DNA of 64,000 bases. Source: Candidatus Magasanikiibacteriota bacterium (GTDB lineage Bacteria > Patescibacteriota > Patescibacteriia > Magasanikbacterales > GWA2-37-8). How positions within the stretch are numbered: the first letter of the stretch is position 1; each line of letters opens with the position of its first letter. A model generated the notes under the pieces. The model was not told where the DNA came from. It was given only the letters and a program-made list of their open reading frames with translations, and did not search any database. Below are positions 10,896 through 61,288 of this stretch, one piece after another. Made by a program: the position numbers and the translations under genes. Where the stretch lies: the NCBI GenBank assembly GCA_041665405.1, contig JBAYIZ010000004.1:3958-67957 (forward strand), read 5' to 3'.

Positions 10896-13150
10896 AAAAT
10901 TTTTGTTTTATTTTTTACCGCCTTTAATATCTTTTCTTCAATTTCTCTCGGAGTCAAATGGGCAACTTCATAAACTTCTGGGACATTACCAGATTTTAGA
11001 TAGGTTTCAATCGCAATAGAGCGAGCATCATAATCGGCTGGTAATAAGAATGGATACAAAAAACCCTTCCAACCATTGTGTAAAGCCACCACCAATTCGC
11101 GTTCGCTGTCTGGGAAAATTTCTTGCGCTCCTCGTGGATCTTTTTTTCTGTATTCTTCAAATAATTCCGGTGATGTGACAGCCAAAATTTTCACATCAAA
11201 ATCTTTTTCCAAATTCGGTAAAATTTCTAATGTATTGAACAGCATTTGAGATCCGCAAATTGCCAAAACTGTTTTTTGTTTTTTATTATTGGCAAATGGT
11301 TTGTAAACATAAGCCCCGTTGATAGCCGCGCGTGCTGGTGGAACATTTCCTTCGCGTTTTATTACTGGCGTATCCGGCCGAGTGACCGACAAAGCAATCG
11401 GTTCGCCTTTTTCCAAAGCATAAAACAACATTTCTACAGTTTCATTGGCATCAAATGGTTTGTAAACTTTGATACCCGGTAGAGCGTTGTACAAGCTCAT
11501 CCAATACAATCCTTGGTGGGTCGGGCCGTCCTCGCCAGTTTCAGGACCATCATGAGCGGCCAGCACAATAAAAAATCCTTTGGAATCTGGTTTGAGATGA
11601 TTACCAATCAATGCTAGGCGAACGCAGTTGCCAATCATGGTAGTGAAGACAGCATAAGTTCCAAACACAGAAACTGGTTGAAAGCCTCCTGGTAAAACAT
11701 CTTGAGACATAGCCGCATACATCATGGCCATATTTTGTTCGGCAATACCGAAACGGATACCACGTCCATATGGATTGGTTTGATTTATCAAACCGTAAAT
11801 ATTTTCAGCTTGATTTACCAAAATAGATTTTCCGAGATCACCGGCACCAGCATAAAAGAAAGCAGTTTTTTGCATTAGCCATTTGAACCAGGCGGCAGAT
11901 GCTTTTCTGGTAGCGATTTGTTCTCCACCTTTAAAAATTAATTCAGGAGGCAATGTTTCTGGGCGTCGCAAAGAGACTGGATTTACTAGTGGACGATCTG
12001 GTAGGGCGGTGACCATTTTTTTTATCAACTCCGATTCAGTTTTTAGTTTTTTTGTAGCCAAATCCAATCTTGATAATAAGAATTTTTCATCGTCTTTGGT
12101 GATTTTTCCACAAATATACTCGATATCTTTGATAACTTGCCCAGCAATTCCAGGAATTTCAAAACCCAAATTTTTCATGATGGTGACGTACTCATCATGT
12201 TTGGCCGGTGTGCCGTGAGAGGTGGCGGTATTTTCCATTGAACCATATAGTTTGCCTTTGAGTGTGTGGGCGATAACGGCTGTGGGCAAATTATTTCCAA
12301 AACCTTCAGCGGCCAGACGGTAGGCGTAAAACAATTCTAAAATATTTTCTCCGTCAACCTCGATGACATTCCAACCCATCCCCAGCCAATGATTAATGTA
12401 GGGTGAATTCATCGCCTCTTCTATCGGGCCATCAATACCAAAATGATTATAATCCAAACTTACAATCAGATTATCGGTATTCGTAGTTGATATTACATTA
12501 CGCGCCTCATAACTCATTCCTTCTTCACTTTCGGCATCGCCCATTAGTACAAAAACTTTGGTGTCCAATCCACAAGATTTATGGGCGATGGCGATACCTC
12601 CAGCGGCGGATAATCCGTGACCAGAAGGTCCAGTCGAGGTGTCTGCGAGTGGATATTGACTCTCCACATGTCCTTGAGGACCGTCGGCATGTCTAAAACG
12701 GGTGAGATTTTCAGGGAAAACTGCATGGATTTCAGTTGGAGAAAATTTTCGTCCAGCGCGGCGTAAACATTCATAAATTAATGAATTGATAGAATGTAAA
12801 GCCGGGGTGCAATGTCCAGCGCTCCAAATCAGACGATCACGGCCAGAATTTTTTGGATCGGTAGGATCGTAAGCTAAATTTTCGCCAAGTAATAAGGCTA
12901 AAATTTGTTCAACTTTGCTACTACTGCCACCGGGATGACCAGATTGTCCAGCTTCCACTGCGGCAAAAATTAAGGCGCGCATCAATCGTGCAAGACTGCT
13001 TAGACGTTCTTTGTCAAACCATTTTGGTTCGGACAATTCTAATTTTTGCAAATTTAAATATTGAGATTTGAATTTACAAAGTTCAAATCTTTCTGGTTGT
13101 TCCTTTTTTAATTTTGCCAAATCTTTTTTTTCTAGCAAGTTGTATATCAT
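10892..13150 (-). CDS. Transketolase-like thiamine-diphosphate enzyme (long form)
   Basis: 752 aa. GHPGG and the TPP-binding GDAESEEGMSYEA (GDG...EG-like) motifs are present. Transketolase versus DXS cannot be separated without an alignment. Confidence 0.55.
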   Translation of the reverse strand: MIYNLLEKKDLAKLKKEQPERFELCKFKSQYLNLQKLELSEPKWFDKERLSSLARLMRALIFAAVEAGQSGHPGGSSSKVEQILALLLGENLAYDPTDPKNSGRDRLIWSAGHCTPALHSINSLIYECLRRAGRKFSPTEIHAVFPENLTRFRHADGPQGHVESQYPLADTSTGPSGHGLSAAGGIAIAHKSCGLDTKVFVLMGDAESEEGMSYEARNVISTTNTDNLIVSLDYNHFGIDGPIEEAMNSPYINHWLGMGWNVIEVDGENILELFYAYRLAAEGFGNNLPTAVIAHTLKGKLYGSMENTATSHGTPAKHDEYVTIMKNLGFEIPGIAGQVIKDIEYICGKITKDDEKFLLSRLDLATKKLKTESELIKKMVTALPDRPLVNPVSLRRPETLPPELIFKGGEQIATRKASAAWFKWLMQKTAFFYAGAGDLGKSILVNQAENIYGLINQTNPYGRGIRFGIAEQNMAMMYAAMSQDVLPGGFQPVSVFGTYAVFTTMIGNCVRLALIGNHLKPDSKGFFIVLAAHDGPETGEDGPTHQGLYWMSLYNALPGIKVYKPFDANETVEMLFYALEKGEPIALSVTRPDTPVIKREGNVPPARAAINGAYVYKPFANNKKQKTVLAICGSQMLFNTLEILPNLEKDFDVKILAVTSPELFEEYRKKDPRGAQEIFPDSERELVVALHNGWKGFLYPFLLPADYDARSIAIETYLKSGNVPEVYEVAHLTPREIEEKILKAVKNKTKIL

Positions 13151-19409: not shown

Positions 19410-19481
19410 GGCCTGTTCGTCTAATGGTTAGGACTTTACCTTCTCAAGGTAGAAATACGGGTTCGATTCCCGTACGGGCTA
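19410..19481 (+). tRNA. tRNA-Glu (anticodon CUC)
   Basis: The cloverleaf was folded by hand. The acceptor stem GGCCTGT/ACGGGCT contains two G-U pairs. The D-arm TTCGTCTAATGGTTAGGAC is tRNA-Glu-like. The anticodon loop is TTCTCAA and the T-loop is TTCGATT. Confidence 0.75.
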
Positions 19482-19483
19482 CA

Positions 19484-19607
19484 AAAGCGGAAGAGTACTT
19501 CCGGTCCAGTCACTCTGGTTCTAACGACATCAGCTTCGGTCTACAAAAGCGGAAGAGTACTTCCGGTCCAGTCACTCTGGTTCTAACGACCTCGGCTTCG
19601 GGCTACA
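19484..19607 (+). repeat. Tandem 62-nt direct repeat (2 copies). Each copy ends with the tRNA-Glu 3' terminus (GGGCTACA / GGTCTACA).
   Basis: Copies at 19484-19545 and 19546-19607 differ at 3 positions. Each unit contains the hairpins CGGAAG-AGTA-CTTCCG and CCAG-TCACT-CTGG. The array abuts the tRNA 3' end. Confidence 0.8.
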
Positions 19608-19679: not shown

Positions 19680-20144
19680 ATGTATAAAATCGTCGCATAT
19701 GATGACACGATGAAAGATGGTGTTGTCCAATTTCTACTTTCAATATTAGAAGGAGAATTTAATCACACTGGCATTGAACGACCAGACATATATTCTATTT
19801 CAGCCACATATCAAAAAGATGGCGGTAATTTTTGGGTTGCTTTTGATCAAGATAAATTAATAGGAACCGCTGGTCTGATTAATTATGGTTCAAATAATGG
19901 ATATATAAAAAGAATGAGTGTTGATCCTAATTATCGTGGTAAGGGAATCGCTCAGAGCCTGTTAAATGTTTTATTAGATTTTGCCAAAGAATATAGTTAT
20001 AAAAAACTATATTTGGCCACTTCAGAAAATATGATAGCCGCTCAAAAATTTTATGAAAAAGAAGGGTTCAACAGAATACCAAAATTACCAAATGGTTTTC
20101 CTACATCTGGAGCCACAATTTTTTATAAATTGTCGTTAAATTAA
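19680..20144 (+). CDS. GNAT-family N-acetyltransferase
   Basis: 154 aa. It has the acetyl-CoA binding motif RGKGIAQSLL and a GNAT fold pattern. Confidence 0.75.
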   Translation: MYKIVAYDDTMKDGVVQFLLSILEGEFNHTGIERPDIYSISATYQKDGGNFWVAFDQDKLIGTAGLINYGSNNGYIKRMSVDPNYRGKGIAQSLLNVLLDFAKEYSYKKLYLATSENMIAAQKFYEKEGFNRIPKLPNGFPTSGATIFYKLSLN

Positions 20145-20155
20145 GTTTTTTCTGT

Positions 20156-20689
20156 ATGATAAAAACTCTAAGCAAAAAACTAATATATAAAAATCATTGG
20201 ATAACTGTTTGGGAAGATAAAGTAGATTTTGGTAAAAATAATAAAGGCATGTATTCGTATATGGAGCGTAATGATGCTGGCCCGATAATGATTGCCCTTA
20301 CCAAAGATAATAAAGTAGCACTATTAAAAGAATGGAGATATCCGATAAAGAAATACTCGCTAGGTTTTCCAGTTGGCGGTCGGGAAAAAAATGAGAGCTG
20401 GAGTAGTGCTGCTAAGCGTGAGTTGAAAGAAGAAACGGGTATTAGCGCGCGCAAGTGGACAAACCTTGGGAAAATATACATTGATCCTGGAGTGAGTACT
20501 CAATATTCTTATGTTTATCTGGCAGAGGATTTAATTTTTGGCGTTCAGGAGCTTGAACATTCTGAAAATCTTACAGTCAAATTTGTCTCTTTAGTTGAAT
20601 TAGAAAAACTGATTTTAAAAAGTGCAATAAAAAGTAATTGGTTATTAGCAAGCTACGCAAAATTATCTGTTTATTTAAATTCAAGATAG
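20156..20689 (+). CDS. NUDIX hydrolase
   Basis: 177 aa. The Nudix box GGREKNESWSSAAKRELKEETGI (GX5EX7REUXEEXGU) is present. Confidence 0.8.
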   Translation: MIKTLSKKLIYKNHWITVWEDKVDFGKNNKGMYSYMERNDAGPIMIALTKDNKVALLKEWRYPIKKYSLGFPVGGREKNESWSSAAKRELKEETGISARKWTNLGKIYIDPGVSTQYSYVYLAEDLIFGVQELEHSENLTVKFVSLVELEKLILKSAIKSNWLLASYAKLSVYLNSR

Positions 20690-20701: not shown

Positions 20702-20730
20702 AGTTTGCCTACCGTCTCGGTAGGGTCTAC
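20702..20730 (+). repeat. Island repeat copy 1: AGTTTGCCTACCGTCTCGGTAGGGTCTAC with an upstream A-run
   Basis: Exact 29-mer with internal inverted repeat CCTACCG-TCT-CGGTAGG. It starts 12 nt after the NUDIX stop. Confidence 0.9.
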
Positions 20731-20736
20731 ACGCAC

Positions 20737-20766
20737 AATTACGCTAAAAATAGCGTAATTTTTGTT
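20737..20766 (+). terminator. Rho-independent terminator (AATTACGCTA-AAAA-TAGCGTAATT then TTTTGTT)
   Basis: Perfect 10-bp stem followed by a T-run, immediately after repeat copy 1. Confidence 0.7.
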
Positions 20767-20782
20767 ACATTTAATATGATAC

Positions 20783-20811
20783 TTGACATATATATAAAAT
20801 ATAGCTATAAT
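20783..20811 (+). promoter_or_regulatory. Consensus sigma70-type promoter TTGACA-N17-TATAAT upstream of the TA operon
   Basis: TTGACA at 20783-20788 and TATAAT at 20806-20811 with an exact 17-nt spacer. The antitoxin start lies ~34 nt downstream. Confidence 0.6.
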
Positions 20812-20844
20812 ATATACATATTAAATCAGTATAATTTACAGAAT

Positions 20845-21120
20845 ATGACCACCCAAGTAATTTTCAAAATTGATACAAAACTTAAAAATCGGGCGATGGC
20901 CAAGGCACAACACGAAGGTATCGCTTTCTCGTCAATTCTTAAATTTGCCACCAAAGCATTTGTTGATGGTGATTTGAATTTGGGTTTAATTGGAAGTGAA
21001 AAGTTCAACTCAACTGTTGGCAGGGATGTGGCAAATGCACAAAAAGATATTTCAAAAGGAAAAAATCTTTCGCCTAGTTTTTCTTCTGCCAAAGCAGCAA
21101 TTAATTTTCTTAAAAAATAA
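20845..21120 (+). CDS. RelB/DinJ-family antitoxin (type II TA)
   Basis: 91 aa from the internal Met (MTTQVIFKIDTKLKNRAMAKAQHEGIAFSSILKF). It has a DinJ-like N-terminus and immediately precedes a RelE-like ORF. The longer ORF call from 20638 runs over the repeat and terminator and is probably not translated. Confidence 0.6.
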   Translation: MTTQVIFKIDTKLKNRAMAKAQHEGIAFSSILKFATKAFVDGDLNLGLIGSEKFNSTVGRDVANAQKDISKGKNLSPSFSSAKAAINFLKK

Positions 21121-21384
21121 ATGAAACTTATGGAGGTAAGATTTCATAAAAATTTTACGAAAAAATTTAAGAAATTACCAGTTAAAATTCAGGAACAATT
21201 TTATGAACGATTAGAGTTGTTTTTTCAGAATAAGTTTGATATAACACTCAATAATCATTCGGTAGACAAAGTTTTCTCAAATTGTAATAGCATAAATATA
21301 AGTGGGGATTACAGAGCGATTTTTGAAGATCAGGATATTATAACTATATTTATTACAATTGGGACTCATTCGGATTTATATTAA
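21121..21384 (+). CDS. RelE/ParE-superfamily toxin (YafQ/RelE-like, type II TA)
   Basis: 87 aa. It reads KFKKLPVKIQEQFYERLELF ... GDYRAIFE ... ITIFITIGTHSDLY, typical of RelE/YafQ mRNA interferases. Its start overlaps the antitoxin stop. Confidence 0.7.
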   Translation: MKLMEVRFHKNFTKKFKKLPVKIQEQFYERLELFFQNKFDITLNNHSVDKVFSNCNSINISGDYRAIFEDQDIITIFITIGTHSDLY

Positions 21385-21387
21385 AAG

Positions 21388-21418
21388 AAAGTTTGCCTAC
21401 CGTCTCGGTAGGGTCTAT
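21388..21418 (+). repeat. Island repeat copy 2 (AAAGTTTGCCTACCGTCTCGGTAGGGTCTAT)
   Basis: It starts 4 nt after the toxin stop and has one terminal mismatch (C to T). Confidence 0.9.
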
Positions 21419-21437
21419 AAAAAAATTGAAAATTAAA

Positions 21438-21461
21438 ATACCTGAAAACAGGTATTTTTTT
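21438..21461 (+). terminator. Rho-independent terminator (TACCTG-AAAA-CAGGTA plus T7)
   Basis: Hairpin plus T-run 20 nt after repeat copy 2. Confidence 0.7.
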
Positions 21462-21470
21462 ATTTTATAA

Positions 21471-21499
21471 TTGACTGTATAGGGTATGGCTGTTAAAAT
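21471..21499 (+). promoter_or_regulatory. Promoter-like TTGACT-N17-TAAAAT, followed by TATAAT and a GGGAGG SD, feeding the GC-rich cassette
   Basis: The -35 and -10 boxes have 17-nt spacing. The SD GGGAGG at 21521-21526 lies 3 nt before the ATG at 21530. Confidence 0.5.
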
Positions 21500-21529
21500 A
21501 ATCCCGCCCTATAATCTCGGGAGGTCGTC

Positions 21530-22201
21530 ATGTTCAAGCACTTTTGTTTGTGCGTGTGGGCGTTCCAGATTGTCTGGGCGCAAGTCGAAATTTCACATTC
21601 AGACCGTCTGCGTCTGTGGATCAAGAGTCTGGCGCTGTACCTGTCGTTCCTCGCATTCACCGATCGCGAGCGACCGAAGGTTCAACTCAAACGAGCCATG
21701 ATCTCGGCAGTGCTCTCGGCGTTGTATGATTACGACACCGATTGGGTGCGGACGAGTGATCCGGCAAGTTCGATGTTCTACCAACAGGTGGACGTACTGC
21801 TCGCTGATCATCCAGCGCGGGAGGAATCCTCGACAACTGTCAAGAATCTCTTCCAGATGGACTGGGAGGGAAAGTTTTCGGCCGATGGTTTGGAGCGCGG
21901 CGGTGTTGCCCTTCGATCCTATAGGAAAATCATCTAAAGTCGGTGGTTGTCAAAATACACCGAGAAGGAGATTGATCACTTCGGTAGAAAATTGCAGATG
22001 GTGGATGACATGCTCGATCTCGAGAAGGACGCTGCGTCCGGAGATACGAACTGTTTTCACCTACCAGCTGCACAGACCTACCGCACTGAACTGCGGCGTT
22101 TCCTGAGGAGTGAGTTCTTCAGGGAGTTGGAGCAGAACTCCTGGGTCTACAAGTCTGTTCGCATGAGGTGCGAACGCAAACTCCAGAGAGGTGTACTGTG
22201 A
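21530..22201 (+). pseudogene. Isoprenyl-diphosphate-synthase-like (Asp-rich GxxLQMVDDMLDL motif) gene interrupted by an in-frame TAA at 21935-21937
   Basis: ~64% GC. ORFs 21530..21937 and 21947..22201 are in the same frame, separated by a single TAA. The downstream part has a trans-IPPS second-Asp-rich-motif-like GRKLQMVDDMLDLEKD...GDTNCFHLP. The whole is shorter than canonical IPPS, so the enzyme may be degenerate. Confidence 0.35.
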
Positions 22202-22992
22202 TTGCTAAGCTCATCTCGACCAGTCGGCCGATGACGGGCGTCTTCGCGGCGCTCCTTTCTGTCGCTGGATTTCGGTACTTCAACGACGCGCCGTGGATGC
22301 TCGTGTCGGCCACCGCCGTTCTCTTCTTGGGAATCACTTGGCACATCATGTCGTTCAACGATCTGATGGACAGGGTGAACGACCTGCGCAAGAACAAACG
22401 GTTCGCGTACGAAAACGAGTGGGCTCTGCGCCAGTACATCGCGGTGCTGAGTTCGGCCACGCTCACCGTCCTTGGTGCGGTCACTGTGTGGGACATGCGT
22501 GTCGGGTTCTTCTGCGCTTGTGTCTGGGCGCTCGGCGTTCTGTACTCGTTCGTGCCGCACTGGTTCGTCGTCCAGAATTTGATCGTCGCGGTGTGCTCTG
22601 GTTCGCCGGTACTCGTCGGCGTGGTCAACAGTGGGGAAGTGGATTACAGGCCGTTGCTCGTGTTTTGCGCCTTCGTCTTTATCATCTTCATTCGTGAAGT
22701 GTACAAAGACATCGAAGACCAGGACACGGACACCGGATACAAGACCACTCTTCCCATCGTGCTCGGCCACGAAGCGAGTGTGGAGGTGACTACTGGGCTG
22801 ACCTTCGGTTGGGCGGTTTGTCTGTTCCTTTACCCCGACACCTTGTTGGGTGTGATCGGGTTGGGTGGGGGTTCGGCTCTGTTGTCCATTCACCAAGAAC
22901 TCTTGTACGACCACAGGAAGTTCGCCCAAGCAAAAGCGGCTTTGGATTGGGTGATCCGAGCCGTCATCGTCAGCATCCTCATCACCCAATAG
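22198..22992 (+). CDS. UbiA-superfamily aromatic/glyceryl prenyltransferase
   Basis: GC-rich. It has the motifs FNDLMDRVNDL (NDxxDxxxD) and YKDIEDQDTDTGYKTTLP (DxxxD...TLP), with 7-8 predicted TM helices. A candidate GTG start at 22198 overlaps the upstream stop (GTGA). The ORF call gives an upstream alternative start at 22168. Confidence 0.7.
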   Translation: MIAKLISTSRPMTGVFAALLSVAGFRYFNDAPWMLVSATAVLFLGITWHIMSFNDLMDRVNDLRKNKRFAYENEWALRQYIAVLSSATLTVLGAVTVWDMRVGFFCACVWALGVLYSFVPHWFVVQNLIVAVCSGSPVLVGVVNSGEVDYRPLLVFCAFVFIIFIREVYKDIEDQDTDTGYKTTLPIVLGHEASVEVTTGLTFGWAVCLFLYPDTLLGVIGLGGGSALLSIHQELLYDHRKFAQAKAALDWVIRAVIVSILITQ

Positions 22993-23122
22993 GAGTGTTT
23001 TCGTTTCGTCCAACCACCTTGAATGCAGGTGGCATGGACGGAATTAAAAAACCGTTCGTGCTACCTGCTTTGATTCTTTATTTGGAATCAGAGCAAGGAG
23101 ATTTTTCACGAGCGGTTTTTTT

Positions 23123-23155
23123 AAAAAGTTTGCCTACCGTCTCGGTAGGGTCTAC
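23123..23155 (+). repeat. Island repeat copy 3 (AAAAAGTTTGCCTACCGTCTCGGTAGGGTCTAC)
   Basis: Exact core. It is preceded by a long-range inverted repeat AAAAACCGTTCGTG (23046) ... CACGAGCGGTTTTTTT (23107) and followed by a terminator. Confidence 0.9.
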
Positions 23156-23163
23156 TGTAAGGG

Positions 23164-23196
23164 ACTGCATCTTCAAAATGGTGCAGTTTTTGTTTT
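23164..23196 (+). terminator. Rho-independent terminator (ACTGCA ... TGCAGT plus TTTTTGTTTT)
   Basis: Hairpin plus T-run 8 nt after repeat copy 3. Confidence 0.6.
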
Positions 23197-23287
23197 GGTT
23201 AAGAGAAGAAATGGAGTTTGCCATTCGAAATTTTTGCATTAGAAATTGTAATATGATAGTATTATAGATATATAAATAATATCCAAT

Positions 23288-23866
23288 ATGGAAGATTGGC
23301 AAAAGAAATTAGAAGCAATGAGATCTGGTTTGCCAAAACAAACTGATTCTTTTGTAATAAATGATGCTTTAATTGTTCCTGCAGCTAAAAAAGAAATTGT
23401 AAGTGTAAAACCTAGCGATAGAGATAGTGTAGAAGTGGAAAAAGATGATGTCCGTACCAGAACTGATTATGATGAACAGGTTAAAAAGGAAATATTAGAA
23501 AAAGAATCATATGATAATGACCCTGATTTTTTAGAAGTAGTTATAATTTTAGGATTGAAAAAAGGCCAGAATAGATATTTTAGAATTCGAGATATTTTTT
23601 ATCATGCAACAAGAACGGATGTCGATTATGAAGTTAATAGATATCTTACATTTACTAATGAAAAGGTACTTTCAATTAAAAAAAAATTAAGAGTACAAGG
23701 ATACAAATCGGCTGCCTACAGATTTTGGTTGTCCGCACAGCCAGAAGGTATGCGATACGGAAAACAAGTAAAAGAAGAACGTTTGAGTCAGGCCGAATAT
23801 TATGCTAAACAAGCGAGAACTACTTTGCAAGAAATTATAGATGGTCACGAGCAGCGTCTTAAGTAA
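23288..23866 (+). CDS. Hypothetical protein (AT-rich cassette, charged/K-E rich)
   Basis: 192 aa. No recognisable motif. Its own promoter-like TTGCAT-N17-TAGTAT lies upstream at ~23234. Confidence 0.4.
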   Translation: MEDWQKKLEAMRSGLPKQTDSFVINDALIVPAAKKEIVSVKPSDRDSVEVEKDDVRTRTDYDEQVKKEILEKESYDNDPDFLEVVIILGLKKGQNRYFRIRDIFYHATRTDVDYEVNRYLTFTNEKVLSIKKKLRVQGYKSAAYRFWLSAQPEGMRYGKQVKEERLSQAEYYAKQARTTLQEIIDGHEQRLK

Positions 23867-23889
23867 TGATTTTTTGGGTTTAGATCAAT

Positions 23890-23918
23890 AGTTTGCCTAC
23901 TGTCTCGGTAGGGTCTAC
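23890..23918 (+). repeat. Island repeat copy 4 (AGTTTGCCTACTGTCTCGGTAGGGTCTAC)
   Basis: It starts 24 nt after the stop and has one stem mismatch (C to T, giving a G-U wobble if transcribed). Confidence 0.85.
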
Positions 23919-23975
23919 ACTGCTGTACACAGGTTCTGGGTGACCGAGAGGACTCAAATCTGTACAGAAAATAAA

Positions 23976-23999
23976 ATACCAATAAAATGGTATTTTTTC
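23976..23999 (+). terminator. Rho-independent terminator (ATACCA-ATAAAA-TGGTAT plus T6)
   Basis: Hairpin plus T-run. It is preceded by a second long hairpin (CTGTACA ... TGTACAG, 23924-23968). Confidence 0.65.
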
Positions 24000-24129
24000 T
24001 TATTTAATAAAATTATACATTTTTCACATCAGAGTATTGAATTTTTCTTAAGTACATGTTAGTTTTATCTTATTCGGTTTCTGCTGTCATGCGGCAGTAG
24101 GAGAAGACAACTCCCACAGGAGGTTCAAC

Positions 24130-25362
24130 GTGAACCGTCATCCGGTGCTGGATCTGTTTCTCAAGTATGCGGCCATCGACACCAAGTCCGGGGTGAATGA
24201 GGAGAATCACCCCAGCTCGGTCGGCCAGACGACCTTGATCGCGATGATCAAGCAGGACCTGCTCGCCAGCGGCGCTACGGAAGGCCAGTTCTTGCACTTC
24301 AAGGACGGCTCGATGTTGGTGCGCTTCGAGGGCACCGTGAACGGCAAGGCGATCTGCTATGCCGCTCACGTGGACACCAGTCCGGAAGCCGCCGGAGGTG
24401 CGACGTGCATCATCCACGAGTACGACGGTGGTGACATCGTCCTGCCCGAGGGGGATGTCGTCATCTCGGAGAAGGATCTCGCCGACAAGAAGGGCACGAT
24501 CGTGACCGCGAACGGACTGACCACGCTCGGTGCCGACGACAAAGCTGGTGTGGCCATCCTCTGCCAGATCGGATCCGACCTGGCCAACGGGACCATCGCC
24601 CACCATCCTCCCGTCGACCTGTACTTCTGCGTGGACGAGGAGATCGGACAGCTCGAGATTGGCGTCGTGCCGTCTGAGATCGTCGGTTCGTGGAGCGCTT
24701 TCATCACGCTCGACGGCGGCAATCCGCAGATGGTCGACACCAGCTGCTTCAACGGCTGGGAGACGATCGTCGAGTTCTTCGGCCAGAGCGCTCATCCTGG
24801 TGCTGACGGCGAGAACCTCAAGCCGGCCCACTACGCGATGGCGCGGCTCATCACCGAGCTGCAGGATACTTGGGTCGTCGATGCTCCCTGGATTTCCCGG
24901 GGCGATGCACCGTTCATCTACGTGTCCAGGGTGGGGGAAATGACCCCCGTTCATGCGCAAGCCGAGGTCATGCCGCGATCCTTCAATGCCGAGGACCTTC
25001 CCAAGTTCCACGAGCTGATTGTCGAGATCACCGAGAACATCGTCGCGTCGTACGGCGTCCGCTGTCAGATCAGTGGTCGTGGGTTGCTGTACGTCAACAC
25101 GGCCACGGCCATCAAGCAGCACCCTGAAGTCCTCGATCCCATCATGCACGCGATCCACGAGATCCTGCATACGACGGGCGAGAACGCCGTCCGCGGCGGC
25201 ACCGATGGTGCCATGGCGAACATGAAGTACCCCGGCCTGCCCTCTCCGAACCTCGGCGTCGGCATGTACAAGTTCCACGGCGTCCGCGAGTTCCTCGTCG
25301 TGAAGGAGATGCTCGCGATGTACGAGGTCATGAAGCTCCTCGTGCCAGCCTATGCCGACTAG
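24130..25362 (+). CDS. pepT: Peptidase T (tripeptide aminopeptidase, M20B family)
   Basis: 410 aa, ~66% GC with GC3 above 80%. Motifs HVDT, GADDKAG, DEEIGQ, GQSAHPG and FHGVRE are present. The SD AGGAGG lies 7 nt before a GTG start. The antisense ORF 24070..25278 is a GC-rich shadow. Confidence 0.8.
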   Translation: MNRHPVLDLFLKYAAIDTKSGVNEENHPSSVGQTTLIAMIKQDLLASGATEGQFLHFKDGSMLVRFEGTVNGKAICYAAHVDTSPEAAGGATCIIHEYDGGDIVLPEGDVVISEKDLADKKGTIVTANGLTTLGADDKAGVAILCQIGSDLANGTIAHHPPVDLYFCVDEEIGQLEIGVVPSEIVGSWSAFITLDGGNPQMVDTSCFNGWETIVEFFGQSAHPGADGENLKPAHYAMARLITELQDTWVVDAPWISRGDAPFIYVSRVGEMTPVHAQAEVMPRSFNAEDLPKFHELIVEITENIVASYGVRCQISGRGLLYVNTATAIKQHPEVLDPIMHAIHEILHTTGENAVRGGTDGAMANMKYPGLPSPNLGVGMYKFHGVREFLVVKEMLAMYEVMKLLVPAYAD

Positions 25363-25492
25363 TTCGTCCCGCCACAGTTCGTTTCCGCTCGCATCCCGCC
25401 AAATTGACTGGGTGCGACCACAAGTCCATCCAGTCCCCTTAATTGATAGTTTAATTCTGTCATTTAAGGGGAATGGATTTGTAAAATAATAA

Positions 25493-25530
25493 AACCACTT
25501 ATAGTAATATGAGTGGTTTTTTGTTGTTTT
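25493..25530 (+). terminator. Rho-independent terminator after pepT (ACCACTTA ... TGAGTGGT plus TTTTTTGTTGTTTT)
   Basis: Hairpin plus T-run. This cassette junction lacks the conserved 29-nt repeat. Confidence 0.6.
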
Positions 25531-25644
25531 AACTTTTAATAATAATTGACAAAAATAGTCTATAGTTGTAGTTTTAACCTAGGTTTCTTGTGTCGCAGGG
25601 TGGTCCTGCGCGAACCAGATCAAGCGCCTCAAGGAAGGTGTCCG

Positions 25645-27093
25645 ATGTTGTTGTCCCCGGTGAAGACCTACTTCCAAGACTTCGGCCAGCTGTTCAAGCT
25701 GCCGAGGGAGTTCTGGGCCATCCAGGCCTTGAACTTCGTGTATTGCGCGTTCTACTTCACGTTCGTGACGATCAGCGCGCTGCACCTGAGCCAGGATGTC
25801 GGCTTCAGCGATGAAGGTGCCGGCCTGCTCTTCGGCGTGTTCATGTTCGGCACGGCGATCATCCAGATCCTGATGGGTCCTGTCGTGGACCGTCTCGGTT
25901 TTCGGAAGACGCCGCTCGTGGCCGCCATGATCATCACCGTCGGCATGCTCGGCATCGGCTTCACGCCGCTCGTGTTCGGCGCCAACAACCTCGCTCGTGC
26001 TCTGATGGTGCTCTTCTACCTCGTGGCTATGGTCGGGAACGGTCTCATGTCCCCGGTTGTCACGGCAGGAGTGAAGAGATTCTCCAATTCCGAGACGCGC
26101 GGCGCGGGCTTCAACATGTGGTACCTGACTATGAATGTCGGAGCTATGCTGACCTTCGTCATCGACTTCATGCGTCGGCCGCTTGAGGACAAGGCCACCG
26201 CCGAACAACTCGCTGCCTTTCGTGATGGTGGGGGCAACTCCAACATCGTGTGGTACCTCGTCGGCCTGCTCGTCGTCTGCTGGCTGGTCGTGTACCTCTT
26301 CCTCAAGAAGGAGGCGCAGTTCGCCGAGTTCAACACGGCCGTGTCGCAGTCGAAGGTCGTCGCGACCAAGACCAAGCAACCGCCTTTCGGCGAGATGATC
26401 AAGGAGATCTGGGCGGACAAGGCGTTTCGCAAGGTCCTCGCCCTCCTGTTCTTCACCATCCCGGCTCACATTCCCTTCGTCGCGATCTTCGTGATCTATC
26501 CCAAGTACTACACGCGGGTGATCGCGCCGGACGTGAACCTGGGGATGTTGCAGTCGCTCAACCCGGTCATCATCGTCGTCGGCCTGCTCATGTTCGCGCC
26601 GTTGCTCAAGCGCTTCAGCGTGTACTGGGTTCTGACCGTCGGCATGTTCATCGGCGGAGCTTCCTGCCTGGTCCTCGCGATCCCTCCGCTGTGGCTCGGC
26701 AAGCTCTTCGGCATCAGCGCCATCGGTGATGTCTACCTCGCGATGGTGGGCGTGCAGATCGTGATCTTCTCGATGGGCGAATTCGTCTGGAGCCCTCAGC
26801 TCCAGGCCTACGTCGGCGCCATCGCTCCCGAAGGCAAGGAAGGCACCTACATGGGCGTGACGAGGTACCCCTACACCCTCGCCAAGTTGTTGGGCGGAGC
26901 CATCGGCGGCCTCCTCCTGGCGCACTACTGCCCTGAGGGAATCAAGCCGTTGCTCGAAGCTGGCAAGGTCGGGTACACCGACGGCCCCGAGTTCATGAAC
27001 CTGATCCTCGCCCTGTTCGCGCTCTCGAGCCCGATGTTCCTGATCCTGCTCCGGAAGAAGTACTACGTCGACACGCGCGCCGAGGCGAGCTGA
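25645..27093 (+). CDS. MFS-family transporter (12 TM helices)
   Basis: ~66% GC. The SD AAGGAAGG lies 6 nt before the ATG at 25645. There are two 6-helix halves with Gly-rich TM segments, and TTGACA at 25546 lies upstream. The ORF call's 25546 start includes the promoter. The antisense ORF 25579..27234 is a shadow. Confidence 0.7.
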   Translation: MLLSPVKTYFQDFGQLFKLPREFWAIQALNFVYCAFYFTFVTISALHLSQDVGFSDEGAGLLFGVFMFGTAIIQILMGPVVDRLGFRKTPLVAAMIITVGMLGIGFTPLVFGANNLARALMVLFYLVAMVGNGLMSPVVTAGVKRFSNSETRGAGFNMWYLTMNVGAMLTFVIDFMRRPLEDKATAEQLAAFRDGGGNSNIVWYLVGLLVVCWLVVYLFLKKEAQFAEFNTAVSQSKVVATKTKQPPFGEMIKEIWADKAFRKVLALLFFTIPAHIPFVAIFVIYPKYYTRVIAPDVNLGMLQSLNPVIIVVGLLMFAPLLKRFSVYWVLTVGMFIGGASCLVLAIPPLWLGKLFGISAIGDVYLAMVGVQIVIFSMGEFVWSPQLQAYVGAIAPEGKEGTYMGVTRYPYTLAKLLGGAIGGLLLAHYCPEGIKPLLEAGKVGYTDGPEFMNLILALFALSSPMFLILLRKKYYVDTRAEAS

Positions 27094-27290
27094 CGAATAC
27101 GACTTCACCACACCCCATCTTCCGAAATACGGTGGGGAAGAGCGACGCTGACTGTCGCTCCGTCCGAAAGGATGTTCATCTTGGCCACCCGGCCAGGTGA
27201 GGAGGATTTGGTCAGAACATTCGACCACCCGCACTCACTTAAATTCAGAATTCATTTCTGGCTTTAAGCGACGGGTGGTTTTTGTTTATG

Positions 27291-27322
27291 AAAAGTTTGC
27301 CTACCGTCTCGGTAGGGTCTAC
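27291..27322 (+). repeat. Island repeat copy 5 (AAAAGTTTGCCTACCGTCTCGGTAGGGTCTAC)
   Basis: Exact core. It is preceded by a terminator-like CCACCCG ... CGGGTGG plus TTTTTGTTT (27222-27288) and followed by a second terminator. Confidence 0.9.
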
Positions 27323-27333
27323 TAGTTTAAAAA

Positions 27334-27360
27334 TTCGCTTATCGAAGCGGATTTTTTGTT
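27334..27360 (+). terminator. Rho-independent terminator (TTCGCTT-ATCG-AAGCGG plus ATTTTTTGTT)
   Basis: Hairpin plus T-run 10 nt after repeat copy 5. Confidence 0.6.
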
Positions 27361-27367
27361 ATCTATC

Positions 27368-27396
27368 TTGACAATACTACTAAATTATGTTATTTT
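27368..27396 (+). promoter_or_regulatory. Promoter-like TTGACA-N17-TATTTT with an AGGAGG SD at 27414
   Basis: Spacing is 17 nt. The SD lies 7 nt before the ATG at 27427. Confidence 0.45.
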
Positions 27397-27426
27397 AATC
27401 AGTCCGAATTTTTCAGGAGGTTCAGA

Positions 27427-27708
27427 ATGCCCAAGCATCGCGCTGGTGGCAAGTACTCAGGTTCGCACACGACCATCATCGATGCCGCCGAGGTGGTCGC
27501 AGACACTGCGGCAAAATTGAAGGAGGTGAGCAAGATTATCCTTGGGATGATAAAGGTTGCGCCTTCAAAACAGGCGCGCCTCAAGATCACGGTCGTTCCG
27601 GCCGGGTTGGAGGTGGTGGTTTACGGCAGAATCTCTCTGCAGACCATCTTCGTCTACACCAAGGACACGAAGAACGTTCAGAGCGCTATCGAGCGAGCTT
27701 TCCGCTGA
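27427..27708 (+). CDS. Small hypothetical protein (93 aa, ~58% GC)
   Basis: A good SD is present. No recognisable motif. The 3' UTR is GC-rich and has two terminator-like hairpins before repeat copy 6. Confidence 0.4.
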   Translation: MPKHRAGGKYSGSHTTIIDAAEVVADTAAKLKEVSKIILGMIKVAPSKQARLKITVVPAGLEVVVYGRISLQTIFVYTKDTKNVQSAIERAFR

Positions 27709-27858
27709 AGGCAAACTCGTGCGCAAGCAACTGACGCTACACCGCGAAGCGTCTGGCAGTGTTGCAACTCGGAATCGCGGTACTGTCAAAAGCAGCTTTG
27801 TTAAAGGCTGTTTTTGTTTTTAAATACATTCGAACTATTTTCGAATTTTTTAATTTAA

Positions 27859-27891
27859 TAAAAAGTTTGCCTACCGTCTCGGTAGGGTCTA
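27859..27891 (+). repeat. Island repeat copy 6 (AAAAAGTTTGCCTACCGTCTCGGTAGGGTCTAC)
   Basis: Exact core. It is preceded by the terminator ATTCGAA-CTATT-TTCGAAT plus T6 (27827-27852) and followed by another. Confidence 0.9.
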
Positions 27892-27902
27892 CTAATCAAA
27901 AA

Positions 27903-27930
27903 ACCAGATCTAAAATTGTCTGGTTTTTTT
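27903..27930 (+). terminator. Rho-independent terminator (ACCAGA-TCTAAAATTG-TCTGGT plus T7)
   Basis: Hairpin plus T-run 11 nt after repeat copy 6. Confidence 0.65.
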
Positions 27931-27984: not shown

Positions 27985-28209
27985 ATGCAACTACCAAATA
28001 ATTTAACCGAAAATACTCAAATCGCGATTTTCAAAGGAAAAGAAATTAGGAAAACTATTTATCAGGGGGAATGGTGGTTTGTTATAGTTGATGTGATAGA
28101 GGCACTTACTGATTCGGTAAATCCAAAACAGTATTTGAAGAATATGCTTAATAGAGATACTGAACTTACCAAAGGGTGGGTTCAAATTGAACGCCCCCTT
28201 GGAAATTAA
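27985..28209 (+). CDS. Short protein (74 aa) with a DinD/Bro-N-like N-terminal motif
   Basis: IAIFKGKEIRKTIYQGEWWFVIVDVIEALTDS is paralogous to the ORF at 63346..63564 and to the N-terminus of the DinD-like gene at 39831. I recognise the motif as DinD/Bro-N-like (antirepressor-type). Bro-N proper is recalled from memory only. Confidence 0.5.
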   Translation: MQLPNNLTENTQIAIFKGKEIRKTIYQGEWWFVIVDVIEALTDSVNPKQYLKNMLNRDTELTKGWVQIERPLGN

Positions 28210-28508: not shown

Positions 28509-28580
28509 TCCTGGGTAGTTGAGTGGTACAACGCCACGCTGTTAACGTGGATATCCTTGGTTCGAATCCAAGCCCAGGAG
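28509..28580 (+). tRNA. tRNA-Asn (anticodon GUU)
   Basis: Hand fold: acceptor TCCTGGG/CCCAGGA, U8, D-stem GTTG/CAAC with a GG loop, anticodon stem CCACG/CGTGG with loop CTGTTAA, and T-arm CTTGG-TTCGAAT-CCAAG. Confidence 0.8.
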
Positions 28581-28695
28581 CGAACAAAGTGAGCGAAAGA
28601 CAGTAGCACACTCGCGTGCGCTACGTTTGGATGAGAAGTTTATGCCCCGAGGGGTAAATCCAAGCCCAGGAGCGAACAAAGTGAGCGAAAGACAG
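28566..28695 (+). repeat. 38-nt direct repeat (ATCCAAGCCCAGGAGCGAACAAAGTGAGCGAAAGACAG) at 28566-28603 and 28658-28695. The first copy includes the last 15 nt of tRNA-Asn.
   Basis: Two identical copies 92 bp apart. This is the att-site-like duplication pattern of tRNA 3' ends. Confidence 0.8.
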
Positions 28696-28707
28696 GAGCG
28701 CACATAA

Positions 28708-59694: not shown

Positions 59695-60489
59695 ATGATT
59701 CCTTATTTTCAGGCCAACGCCATAGCATTCGGTCCACTCACTATCCAGGTGTGGGGGTTGTTTGTGTCACTGGGAATTTTATCTGGTTTGATTTTGGCTT
59801 ATAAACTTTCGCGCAAATATTTTTTGGCGGAGCAGGTTGTTTTGGATTTGGGAGTGTGGAGCATTGTGGGCGGTTTGATTATGGCTAGAATATTTCATGT
59901 CGTATTCTATGCACCAGAATATTATTTATTGCACCCGTCTGAGATAATTTATTTTTGGCAAGGTGGAGCATCTTCGCTAGGTGGGTTTGTGGGAGCGGCT
60001 TTTGCAATTTATATTTTTGCAAAATATAAAAAGTTTACACTAAAAGAACTATGGCCTTATTTTGATGTTATGTCTTTGAGTTTGTGGTTGGGGTGGGCGA
60101 TTGGGAGGATTGGTTGTTTTATTATTCATGATCATCCGGGGATGTTATCCAATTCTTTTTTGGCTGTAAATTTTCCCAGTGGTGCGCGTTTTGATTTGGG
60201 TTTGTTTGATTCATTATTAGGTTGGTTTATTTTTATTGTGTTTGCGCTATTGTTTAAAAAATTAGTAAAAGCGCGTTGGGGATTAGTGGTTCAATTGTCT
60301 TTTATGGTTTACGCTTTTGTGCGTTTTTGGTTGGATTTTTTGCGTGCTACGGATGTGACACAAGCGGATGTGAGATATCTGATGTTGACCCCAGCTCAAT
60401 GGGGAATGCTGGCGATATTTATCGGATTGACTTTTTGGTTGGTTTTTGATAGTATTCAACGACGAAAAAATCTCGGAGAGGTCGCATAG
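59695..60489 (+). CDS. lgt: Prolipoprotein diacylglyceryl transferase
   Basis: Polytopic. The Lgt signature GRIGCFIIHDHPG (GRxGNFxNxE-like) is present. The start is more likely the ATG at 59695 than 59668. Confidence 0.75.
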   Translation: MIPYFQANAIAFGPLTIQVWGLFVSLGILSGLILAYKLSRKYFLAEQVVLDLGVWSIVGGLIMARIFHVVFYAPEYYLLHPSEIIYFWQGGASSLGGFVGAAFAIYIFAKYKKFTLKELWPYFDVMSLSLWLGWAIGRIGCFIIHDHPGMLSNSFLAVNFPSGARFDLGLFDSLLGWFIFIVFALLFKKLVKARWGLVVQLSFMVYAFVRFWLDFLRATDVTQADVRYLMLTPAQWGMLAIFIGLTFWLVFDSIQRRKNLGEVA

Positions 60490-60559
60490 TGGCCGAGTGC
60501 GCCGCCTTGGAAAGGCGGTATACCGCAAGGTATCGAGGGTTCGACTCCCTCTCTCTCCG
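60475..60559 (+). tRNA. tRNA-Ser (anticodon GGA), class II with long variable arm
   Basis: Acceptor GGAGAGG/TCTCTCC, anticodon stem CCGCC/GGCGG with loop TTGGAAA, variable hairpin TACC-GCAA-GGTA, and T-arm GAGGG-TTCGACT-CCCTC. Its 5' end overlaps the lgt stop region. Confidence 0.75.
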
Positions 60560-60596
60560 CTGGGTCACGCTTATATGAGCGACTTGCTCATATTCC

Positions 60597-60629: not shown

Positions 60630-60705
60630 ATTGACAAATATATTTATTTATCATAGGCTTTCAACAATGAGACTTCGCGGATCTTCCGCAAGGAAGGAGG
60701 CACTC

Positions 60706-61041
60706 ATGTGTTCATTGCGTGGACCGTACCATGAGACCGTCGTCAACGGGCTCAACGAAGCACTCTCCAGCTTCCTGGCAAGCCCAAATGTCGCCTTTCT
60801 TCGGGACATGGAGACACTCCTCAAGCACGTCGACAACACGACGTGCTTGCCGGAGCACCTGCCCGGGGTGCTGCGGGCACTCGAAGCTCTGCGGATCCAG
60901 GTGATAGGGAACGAGCTACCGGTGTCCATCAGCTTCCGGATCCAGACCTCAGTCAATCTCTTGCTTGAATACCAAAGCGAGATGGTCGAGGAGGGCGAAC
61001 TGGAGCCGACGAAGGTGTGGACTCCTCATCACACCCTGTAG
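60706..61041 (+). CDS. GC-rich (~60%) hypothetical protein, putatively foreign
   Basis: 111 aa from the ATG at 60706, preceded by the SD AAGGAAGGAGG. TTGACA lies at ~60631. It is followed by a long imperfect hairpin plus T-run (61151-61225). The composition stands out sharply from the flanks. Confidence 0.45.
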   Translation: MCSLRGPYHETVVNGLNEALSSFLASPNVAFLRDMETLLKHVDNTTCLPEHLPGVLRALEALRIQVIGNELPVSISFRIQTSVNLLLEYQSEMVEEGELEPTKVWTPHHTL

Positions 61042-61288
61042 ACCCTCCACAAATCACCCTGCCTTCGTCTATGGCCGGGTTGAGAGGTGTATAACAACAC
61101 CCCTCCGTCTCTATGAGACGTGAACTGCAGAAATGCGATGAGCAGGGAAGTCAGACACATTGGACCACCTACACTCATCCAAAATTAGAAATAGTATTCT
61201 TATTTTGGATGATAGGTGGTCTTTTGTTTTATTAAAAAATATAATTGACTGCAAGACCAAAAAAGCATACAATTAAGACTGAAAAAAT

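Follow-up and report, generated by a model that had tools for sequence, protein, structure and literature searches.

How does a run of GC-rich genes come to lie in an AT-rich bacterial genome, broken up by spacers as AT-rich as the DNA around them? The question is raised by a 64,000-nt stretch from a Candidatus Magasanikiibacteriota bacterium (GenBank assembly GCA_041665405.1, contig JBAYIZ010000004.1, positions 3,958 to 67,957 of the forward strand), here called the window, in whose coordinates all positions are given unless a related locus is named. The tiny genomes of Patescibacteria, the candidate phyla radiation (CPR), belong to bacteria that rely on other cells, and little is understood of how these acquire and trade functions. 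Within the window, an island carries five GC-rich genes, among them those for a pepT-like peptidase, an MFS transporter and a UbiA-family prenyltransferase, together with AT-rich genes and six copies of a 29-nt repeat. The evidence leans, if modestly, toward a tRNA-flanked island of complete expression units that came from a GC-rich pool within Patescibacteria and were added singly at the repeat. This reading is carried by the composition of the genes, their modular anatomy, CPR-restricted relatives that show the same mosaic, and a contrast in Shine-Dalgarno sequences between these genes and those of the host.

Composition and anatomy of the island

Sliding GC profiles gave the window a mean of 36–37% GC, and two-state hidden Markov model (HMM) segmentation delimited four GC-rich tracts in it (Table 1), separated by AT-rich spacers of 23–33% GC. 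Outside 21486-27790, just one more tract of similar size was found in the 64 kb, at 60676-61169. The tracts start 13–55 nt upstream of start codons, 4–18 nt after the −10 hexamers, and end 49–145 nt past stop codons, at terminator hairpins. Because the non-coding portions within the tracts are 57% GC (659 nt), compared with 29% GC in the spacers (1257 nt), the entire transcript is GC-rich and not its codons alone. GC content at third codon positions (GC3) was 0.65 in the first open reading frame (ORF 21530-22201, in both halves), 0.75 in the UbiA gene, 0.84 in pepT, 0.88 in the MFS gene and 0.72 in the 93-aa ORF; the GC-rich genes pooled, including that of the unit at 60.7 kb, gave 0.79, against 0.19–0.42 in all other genes measured in the window. 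First codon positions (GC1 0.53–0.62 versus about 0.45) point to shifted amino-acid usage, and the GAG fraction of Glu codons was 0.71 in the GC-rich genes versus 0.20 in host genes. GAG, which the GC-rich genes favor for Glu, is the codon read by the tRNA-Glu(CUC) that marks the left edge of the island.

These measurements bear out the GC mosaic that a first-pass annotation of the window had described, including blocks that end near their ORFs, an AT-rich ORF (23288-23866) interleaved among them, antisense shadow ORFs of 402 and 551 aa, sigma-70-like AT-rich promoters and hairpin terminators around the units, and the general view that the genes are alien in composition and the region modular. 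The annotation had set the GC content of the blocks too high, at 60–68% as against the 55–61% measured, and its GC3 above 80% applies to pepT and the MFS gene, not to the UbiA gene, the 93-aa ORF or the first ORF.

Translation signals set the same genes apart. An AGGAGG-like Shine-Dalgarno sequence 4–20 nt before the start codon was found for all six GC-rich genes and for 3 of 50 AT-rich genes (hypergeometric p ~3e-6). This contrast was repeated in six of the loci with related genes that were fetched from other genomes and metagenomes (L002, L005, L007, L008, L009 and L010 in our numbering). In composition, codon usage and translation signals alike, the GC-rich genes are therefore unlike those of the host, as expected of horizontally acquired genes. 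The upstream regions of the host genes are A/T-rich, with the Shine-Dalgarno sequence missing in 47 of 50. At a further locus, L004, a pepT gene that is not GC-shifted still has a Shine-Dalgarno sequence among neighbors that have none.

Transcription signals are arranged with similar regularity. Each 29-nt repeat is followed by a hairpin terminator, of differing sequence from copy to copy, and then by a promoter-like site before the next gene. A consensus scan scored three promoters, all with 17-nt spacers, and the remaining promoter-like sites were read from the sequence. The GC-rich cassettes close with a long hairpin terminator of their own ahead of the repeat, so that their junctions would fold as terminator, repeat hairpin and terminator in succession. 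The 151-nt spacer between pepT and the MFS gene (23% GC) contains a hairpin, a terminator and a promoter. The island is thus a series of self-contained units, in each of which one or two genes stand between a sigma-70-type promoter and a hairpin terminator.

The accessory-gene island spans about 9 kb, at roughly 19.5–28.7 kb, with 21486-27790 as its core; it lies between tRNA-Glu(CUC) and tRNA-Asn(GUU), and the six repeats split it into five cassettes, two AT-rich and three GC-rich, all co-oriented on the plus strand. As in islands inserted beside tRNA genes, the tRNA 3′ ends are duplicated (two 62-nt copies for Glu, 47 nt for Asn); by their sequence, these duplications look like att-type scars of past integration or excision. 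The toxin-antitoxin cassette and an ORF broken by a nonsense codon are further hallmarks of an island. A Pfam search found no integrase or other mobility gene between 19.4 and 28.7 kb. The first ORF of cassette 2 is interrupted by an in-frame TAA (21935-21937) and lies in the least GC-rich of the GC blocks, and this nonsense-broken unit with its lower GC3 is probably older and decaying.

Table 1 Features of the island and of the GC-rich unit near 60.7 kb
Feature	Position	Strand	Composition, signals or source of the call
tRNA-Glu(CUC), left edge	19410..19482	+	ARAGORN, Rfam
Two tandem 62-nt copies starting with the last 8 nt of tRNA-Glu	19475..19598	+	repeat search
GNAT acetyltransferase, upstream of repeat copy 1	19680-20144	+	AT-rich, GC3 0.21; Pfam
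NUDIX hydrolase, upstream of repeat copy 1	20156-20689	+	AT-rich, GC3 0.28; Pfam
Repeat copy 1	20702..20730	+	exact
Cassette 1	20731..21389	+	AT-rich; terminator 20737-20760; consensus promoter 20783-20811
Putative antitoxin (cassette 1)	20845-21120	+	promoter TTGACA-17-TATAAT (consensus scan)
RelE/ParE-family toxin (cassette 1)	21121-21384	+	
Repeat copy 2	21390..21418	+	last base T
Cassette 2	21419..23126	+	GC-rich; terminator 21435-21458; promoter 21471-21499, TTGACT-17-TAAAAT (consensus scan); long hairpin terminator ~23046-23121
GC-rich tract 1 (cassette 2)	21503-23041		55% GC
First ORF (cassette 2)	21530-22201	+	
UbiA-family prenyltransferase (cassette 2)	22198-22992	+	
Repeat copy 3	23127..23155	+	exact
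Cassette 3	23156..23889	+	AT-rich; terminator 23160-23191
192-aa ORF (cassette 3)	23288-23866	+	GC3 0.19
Repeat copy 4	23890..23918	+	stem C-to-T leaves a T-G pair (U-G in RNA)
Cassette 4	23919..27293	+	two GC-rich transcription units, no 29-nt repeat between
GC-rich tract 2 (cassette 4, unit 1)	24075-25438		61% GC
pepT-like M20 peptidase (unit 1)	24130-25362	+	
GC-rich tract 3 (cassette 4, unit 2)	25590-27238		61% GC
Peptide-transporter-like MFS gene (unit 2)	25645-27093	+	hairpin terminator 27230-27283
Repeat copy 5	27294..27322	+	exact
Cassette 5	27323..27863	+	terminator 27329-27356; promoter 27368-27396, TTGACA-17-TATTTT (consensus scan); terminator 27787-27816
GC-rich tract 4 (cassette 5)	27414-27780		56% GC
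DUF2103 ORF, 93 aa (cassette 5)	27427-27708	+	
Repeat copy 6	27864..27892	+	exact
Terminator-like hairpin after repeat copy 6	~27903-27930		ACCAGA...TCTGGT and T run; read from sequence
Truncated Bro-N ORF, downstream of last repeat	27985-28209		
tRNA-Asn(GUU), right edge	28509-28581	+	
47-nt direct repeat duplicating the tRNA-Asn 3′ end	28565-28611 and 28657-28703	+	45 nt apart
tRNA-Ser(GGA), directly upstream of fifth GC-rich unit	60475-60560		
Fifth GC-rich single-gene unit	60668..61170	+	57% GC; TTGACA promoter; Shine-Dalgarno; no 29-nt repeat

Relatives of the GC-rich genes

The pepT and MFS proteins of the window are recorded at NCBI as Ca. Magasanikbacteria. The nearest relative of the pepT protein, at 67% identity, comes from another Ca. 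Magasanikbacteria metagenome-assembled genome (MAG), followed by relatives at 66–61%, 49–40% and 36% (two 'Patescibacteria group' MAGs), whereas ordinary peptidase T of Bacteroidota, Planctomycetota, Actinomycetes and others is ~30% identical to it. In 5.8 billion proteins, the MFS family had just 24 matches, 82–51% identical and including four Ca. Peregrinibacteria MAGs (a Peregrinibacteria homologue stands at 51%), and UbiA had three, 48–38% identical. The close relatives were all in Patescibacteria or in contigs that look CPR-like wherever neighboring genes are present. Among the matches listed, the best in other phyla or on plasmids were at most 35% identical, and no identifiable donor lineage outside the host clade was found. 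Scanning a genome collection with a pepT profile returned generic PepT at 28–35% identity, with neither a CPR locus nor a close relative among the 80 loci listed. No relatives of pepT, MFS, UbiA, DUF2103 or the 192-aa ORF were found in viral contigs, and plasmid matches were at most 31% identical, which gives no evidence for a phage or plasmid reservoir.

The relatives show the same compositional mosaic. For pepT, GC3 was 0.86, 0.80, 0.91 and 0.75 in L001, L002, L005 and L007, where the median GC of the flanks was 0.47, 0.41, 0.46 and 0.45, respectively; in L009 it was 0.90, next to a host gene of GC3 0.36. For the MFS gene, GC3 was 0.85 in the Peregrinibacteria locus L008 (median flank GC 0.38), 0.88 in L095 (0.38), 0.87 in L098 (0.35), 0.88 in L102 (0.36) and 0.76 in L010 (0.52, in a genome that is itself ~52% GC); with L009 and L099 included, these loci other than L010 range over 0.85–0.90, and a partial gene in L100 gave 0.78. 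Where the flank is AT-rich, its median GC was 0.32–0.47. The L004 pepT, 41% identical, was the sole relative that matched the composition of its own genome. Because the CPR homologues are GC-rich islands of one gene each in AT-rich contigs, the composition is foreign to each host while the gene families belong to the radiation, and because the relatives are equally GC-rich within AT-rich CPR genomes, the units point to a shared CPR pool rather than a distant phylum. The neighbors vary from locus to locus (tRNA synthetases, sigma-70 with DnaG, RecG, ribosomal proteins L10/L12, GreA, NusA), and in three of the related loci tRNA genes adjoin the GC-rich gene or lie within ~1.2 kb of it. L003 (~57% GC) carries an OPT-pepT-OPT-thiolase arrangement in which all genes are 57–62% GC and the spacers 30–35% GC, with a Shine-Dalgarno sequence on all three genes whose start is in the contig; this locus represents either a multi-gene island like the one described here or part of a donor-type genome. 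Several further GC-rich genes were seen in L095.

The AT-rich signals are not simply a native scaffold, because at least one AT-rich terminator was inherited with its gene. The terminator after pepT in the window (25487-25521) is 94% identical over 35 nt to that after the 66%-identical pepT of L003, and this conservation indicates that it travels with the gene. The spacers are also exchangeable, as the JGI loci L095 and L096 are identical over 21 kb except in the terminator-promoter spacer after the MFS gene; it spans 11444-11538 (95 nt) in L095 and 11444-11631 (188 nt) in L096, the two sequences are unrelated, and the C-terminus of the MFS protein is altered. Moreover, GC-rich units occur without the 29-nt repeat at the pepT-MFS junction, at 60.7 kb and in all other loci. 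We propose that the four GC-rich units (five genes) would have been acquired horizontally as wholes, with at least part of their AT-rich signals, from a pool of units circulating among Patescibacteria whose ultimate origin would be GC-rich, Shine-Dalgarno-using and unsampled. Consistent with this proposal, most detected gene transfers into Patescibacteria originate in other Patescibacteria (PMC12455944). In literature searches, neither this mosaic nor any integron-like array was found described for Patescibacteria.

If so, peptide-scavenging and other accessory genes would reach these bacteria as ready-to-run units that recur across CPR classes. Three independent marks (GC-rich transcripts, Shine-Dalgarno sequences in hosts without them, and long hairpin terminators) offer a simple screen of CPR genomes for such a shared mobile gene pool.

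The repeat, the composition and rival explanations

The 29-nt repeat, AGTTTGCCTACCGTCTCGGTAGGGTCTAC, occurs in six copies, all on the plus strand and with at most one mismatch, where zero would be expected by chance. The copies are direct and lie within 7.2 kb, with none in the other 56.8 kb (chance if scattered, ~2e-5); allowing up to 9 mismatches, no further or degenerate copy was found in the 64 kb, and none was inverted. Alignment confined the conserved unit to 29–33 nt, beyond which the flanks are unrelated, and the spacings between copies, 570–3404 nt, contain genes. The repeat folds into a 7-bp hairpin (−12.2 kcal/mol, z = −3.1) and allows an 11-7-11 parse in which the arms are palindromic over their inner 5 bp and differ in their outer bases, around an asymmetric 7-nt center. 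At three of the six junctions a strong terminator precedes the repeat, which would therefore rarely be transcribed there with the upstream gene. The copies at 20702, 21390 and 23890 directly follow AT-rich genes; each starts 5–23 nt after the stop codon, and the only terminator comes after it. Given these three copies and the lack of one between pepT and the MFS gene, the repeat is not specific to the GC blocks; of the repeat-bounded module described at first, the six near-identical direct repeats hold, but not a repeat at the border of every GC-rich gene. A role as operator for the downstream promoter was rejected, as the distance from the repeat to the −35 element varies from 45 to ~118 nt with a terminator in between.

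We infer that the repeat is a DNA joint, a candidate recombination site, rather than an RNA element. It retains 28–29 of 29 identical positions across units of unlike composition and apparent age, is confined to one array, follows a strong terminator at three junctions, and can be parsed into two 11-nt arms in the manner of tyrosine-recombinase core sites. Most likely, circular cassettes would have recombined in successively at this short specific site through a recombinase encoded elsewhere, and the 29-nt repeats would be the remaining joints. Direct repeats fit such stepwise addition better than the arrival of a single contiguous island, in agreement with the one-by-one placement first proposed. 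The site is a concrete candidate for how units get stacked, and the array is an unusual variant of cassette stacking, integrase-less and with a promoter in every cassette. In L002, an 87-nt direct repeat (728-814 and 2268-2354, 98% identical), comprising a hairpin and an intrinsic terminator, brackets the GC-rich pepT; we read it as a second, unrelated case of a repeat-bounded cassette. Separately, a genome-specific (C)ATGATT-rich intergenic repeat was seen in L095 (266-302, 5354-5390, 9259-9304, 13418-13450) and in L096 (~11490); at ~13420 in L095 and ~11490 in L096 it stands directly after a terminator, a position comparable to that of the 29-mer.

Several results weigh against this account. 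No recombinase or transposase domain, a tyrosine recombinase included, was found by Pfam in any ORF of at least 80 aa in the 64 kb, out of a contig of 70.6 kb, and no alternative arrangement of the array was seen. None of the genome, metagenome and viral collections searched for exact copies of the repeat (TTTGCCTACNGTCTCGGTAGGGTC) gave a match, nor did fuzzy searches in 102 fetched loci, and a 7-nt center with a perfect 7-bp stem is atypical of known Xer or integron sites. As to the source, no uniformly high-GC contig with a close homologue was found, L003 being the only donor-type candidate. Furthermore, GC3 stays at 0.77–0.90 despite near-saturated divergence at fourfold sites, where the window genes and their closest relatives are 45–51% different and saturation at this composition is ~60%.

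Comparison with known systems yielded partial likenesses. Integrons and clusters of attC sites lacking an integrase (CALIN) share with the island one-directional short cassettes of mixed composition, near-identical, structured and genome-specific repeats, a toxin-antitoxin cassette and the lack of an adjacent integrase. However, attC sites are ~57–140 nt long with an R''-L''...L'-R' layout and a 3′ GTTRRRY, and the 29-nt window repeat has none of these; it carries GTTTGCC at its 5′ end, not its 3′ end, and the 100 nt before it contain no inverted RYYYAAC as a partner. Most integron cassettes lack promoters and are read from a shared one, whereas those of the window each have their own promoter and terminator, and a complete integron has intI, attI and Pc, whereas the ORFs of the 64 kb include no tyrosine recombinase and no attI or Pc is present here. 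The pdif modules of Acinetobacter plasmids are likewise small and integrase-less, with one to a few genes, ~28-nt two-arm sites and, as would apply here, a recombinase acting in trans, and their arms, with palindromic inner bases and differing outer bases, resemble those into which the window repeat can be parsed. Their sites are 11-6-11, a XerC arm and a XerD arm around a 6-nt center, dif-like in sequence, alternately inverted and mostly on plasmids, whereas the window repeat would have a 7-nt center, is unlike any dif, always direct and chromosomal. Integrative elements that accrete in tandem at tRNA genes, and their derivatives without an integrase, the cis-mobilizable elements (CIMEs), also form tRNA-bounded, integrase-less rows with the same direct repeat and duplicated 3′ ends; the window units are far smaller (0.57–3.4 kb), their repeat is not a tRNA segment, and no integrase-bearing parent element is visible. 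Repetitive extragenic palindromes (REPs) and the bacterial interspersed mosaic elements (BIMEs) built from them are, like the window repeat, short GC-rich palindromes in 3′ intergenic positions; the reverse complement of the window repeat begins with GTAG, and its copies share one orientation. REPs are genome-wide, in tens to hundreds of copies, often in inverted pairs and served by a REP-associated tyrosine transposase (RAYT) gene, in contrast to six clustered copies here with no Y1 transposase or RAYT. Clustered regularly interspaced short palindromic repeats (CRISPR) are 23–47 nt long with spacers of ~26–72 nt, unlike the gene-holding spacings here. Each of the attC, pdif, REP and CRISPR readings of the repeat fails at least one defining feature and was rejected.

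The rival that survives best, tentative as it is and well short of an even chance, holds that the repeat acts in transcription or as RNA and has been copied from unit to unit. It could be a hairpin that stabilizes or processes 3′ ends, an insulator bound by protein, or the half of a bidirectional terminator that works in antisense. In every case the stable 7-bp hairpin has a stop codon or terminator before it and another terminator after it, and the sole stem mutation, in copy 4, preserves a G-U pair. After the three AT-rich genes the repeat would be transcribed, because it lies before their only terminator. An insulator role is a live rival because the minus strand of the repeat scores as an intrinsic terminator, with the hairpin followed by CAAACTTTTT. 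Against these points, the strong terminators ahead of the repeat at three of the six junctions would keep it out of the upstream transcripts; the near-perfect identity extends to loop and flanks across differing units, which a hairpin does not need; and the copies are limited to one 7-kb array although ~50 other intergenic regions exist. An Rfam scan of the region (E up to 1) gave the repeat no family, CRISPR-DR included, and the two tRNAs were its sole significant matches.

A second rival, which we regard as unlikely, concerns the composition instead of the repeat. It takes the GC-rich genes for CPR-restricted genes, long resident in AT-rich genomes or circulating among such genomes alone and held at ~60% GC by a gene- or cassette-specific process, and not for imports still to be ameliorated; GC-biased gene conversion tied to cassette recombination is one candidate, and selection on RNA stability or on Shine-Dalgarno-led translation of structured mRNAs is another. 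Near-saturated fourfold sites combined with high GC3 imply either many recent independent imports or such a GC-keeping force. To follow the direction of change, synonymous third-position changes were assigned by parsimony to terminal branches, with small counts and the known bias of parsimony in skewed sequences. For the MFS gene, GC-to-AT changes, AT-to-GC changes and C-G interchanges numbered 23, 5 and 9 on the window branch, 16, 6 and 24 on the L009 branch, and 19, 6 and 28 on the L095 branch; for pepT, they numbered 24–26, 5–15 and 12–19 on the window branch and 16, 16 and 2 on the L001 branch. The ratio of GC-to-AT to AT-to-GC changes was 1:1 to ~5:1 on the window, L001, L009 and L095 branches and up to ~12:1 on L002 and L003. 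By our own estimate, free decay toward the host GC3 of ~0.3 would give ~17:1, and equilibrium 1:1, inflated by the parsimony bias; the observed ratios fall between the two, within the limits of small numbers and that bias.

Maintenance is favored in that close homologues were found on no contig that is GC-rich throughout and that GC3 hardly varies across hosts, at 0.75–0.91 whatever the flank GC (0.32–0.57). The close homologues lie beside AT-rich DNA in nearly every locus, with L003 (~57% GC) and L010 (~52% GC) as exceptions; synonymous sites approach saturation between copies with no loss of GC; C-G interchanges are as common as GC-to-AT changes, and the ratios stay below the free-decay expectation. 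The L095/L096 spacer swap shows recombination at unit boundaries, and codon selection alone is ruled out by the high GC of the untranslated ends. On the other side, GC-to-AT changes still exceed AT-to-GC changes on most branches, some amelioration seems to have occurred in the copies of lower GC3 (L002, L003, cassette 2), and the parsimony counts are small and biased. No bacterial mechanism known to us would restrict a GC bias of this strength to individual transcripts. Repeated import finds support in the differing loci, the nearby tRNA genes, the att-like scars, the decaying cassette 2 and the Shine-Dalgarno signature, as well as in the prevalence of transfers within Patescibacteria cited above; the loci, the tRNA genes and the translation signals are as imports would leave them. 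The alien-gene model of Lawrence and Ochman describes the same shifts in GC, GC3, codon and amino-acid usage, with tRNA adjacency and one decaying gene. The window departs from it in that the atypical composition is found in sampled relatives across CPR classes despite the near-saturated synonymous divergence and stops at transcript boundaries, and in that the donor genome is not identifiable. Should the high GC prove to be actively maintained, bacteria would here provide an unusually clean example of composition controlled transcript by transcript.

We give less credence still to a bolder proposal: a cassette system of the Patescibacteria's own, in which mobile promoter-to-terminator units are stacked at hairpin sites by a recombinase acting in trans and their transcripts are kept at ~60% GC. 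The GC content would then be upheld by a recombination-linked process such as GC-biased gene conversion, or by selection at the RNA level, and not be left over from a donor, and Shine-Dalgarno units would sit inside genomes of 35–45% GC that lack such sites.

The model of the first-pass annotation, in which coding segments from a distant, high-GC, Actinobacteria-like phylum were put into a native promoter-repeat-terminator module, has become highly improbable. Codon and amino-acid make-up do resemble those of a ~60–65% GC genome (GC1 as above, GC3 up to 0.88), the tracts begin right after the −10 hexamers, and a spacer between two GC-rich genes is exchangeable between strains. The expectation of an Actinobacteria-like donor nevertheless fails because the nearest homologues lie in Patescibacteria, the same radiation as the host, which is to the letter the outcome that the annotation had named as refuting it, and no homologue above 35% identity was seen outside it among the matches listed. 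The native scaffold fares no better, as an AT-rich terminator was inherited together with pepT, some GC-rich units have no repeat, and AT-rich cassettes are flanked by it as well.

An assembly chimera joining reads of a GC-rich organism to a CPR contig can be set aside as very improbable, even though other assemblies hold the MFS gene alone on 1.66–1.68 kb contigs that break in or near AT-rich spacers and several Peregrinibacteria MFS copies are partial and at contig ends, because those JGI and Logan contigs, from two other assemblies, are 100% identical to 25526-27208 and 25492-27150 and so show, with no base different, the AT-to-GC junction that precedes the MFS gene, because ~10 contigs of other projects (NCBI, JGI, ENA, Logan; different samples) show the same architecture, and because functional signals and hairpin stems straddle the junctions.

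Gene content and further features

The pepT-like ORF scored 207.6 bits against the NCBIfam PepT subfamily, whose cut-off is 255, and the metal-binding residues H80, D82, D137, E170, E171, D195 and H383 are invariant across 29 relatives; by sequence, it appears to be PepT-like yet to belong to a divergent clade. Together with the MFS gene, the predicted peptidase probably provides peptide uptake and breakdown. In cassette 2, the GTG start of the UbiA gene overlaps the stop codon of the upstream ORF (GTGA, 22198), an arrangement of translational coupling. That upstream ORF had been labeled isoprenoid-synthase-like; Pfam (E up to 5), NCBIfam and PDB sequences gave this identity no support, and the label was dropped for an ORF that also carries the TAA.

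In L001 (~9790-9920), L002 (~900-985), L003 (~2540-2635) and L009 (~1800-1920), the 5′ leaders of pepT share the motifs CAACGGAGGT / CAAC...GGAGG...CAAC, followed by GTTCTGG, which are missing from the window copy. They may form a cis-regulatory leader; no Rfam family matched these leaders, and folding their alignment gave no convincing structure. Over the AT-looped hairpin and terminator downstream of the window pepT (25432-25528), Rfam gave a sub-threshold match to a trpB non-coding RNA motif (37 bits versus a gathering score of 59), which is probably merely terminator structure. A similar hairpin also follows pepT in L009, where an apparently structured non-coding stretch of ~60% GC (~3580-3900) separates the pepT unit from the AT-rich gene that follows and matched no Rfam family at E up to 0.1.

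To the left of the island, GC skew flips sign at ~16.8 kb, where murB and an ATP-grasp gene overlap at their starts and genes turn from the minus strand on the left to the plus strand on the right. This point, from which the island lies 3–11 kb to the right, could be a replication origin or merely a local strand switch. Far to the right, the fifth GC-rich unit has a 111-aa ORF (60706-61041) that could be placed in no known family. Its 3′ end is GC-rich, and its long hairpin terminator has a 5′ arm, GACCACCTACACTCA, that resembles the MFS terminator, GACCACCCGCACTCA.

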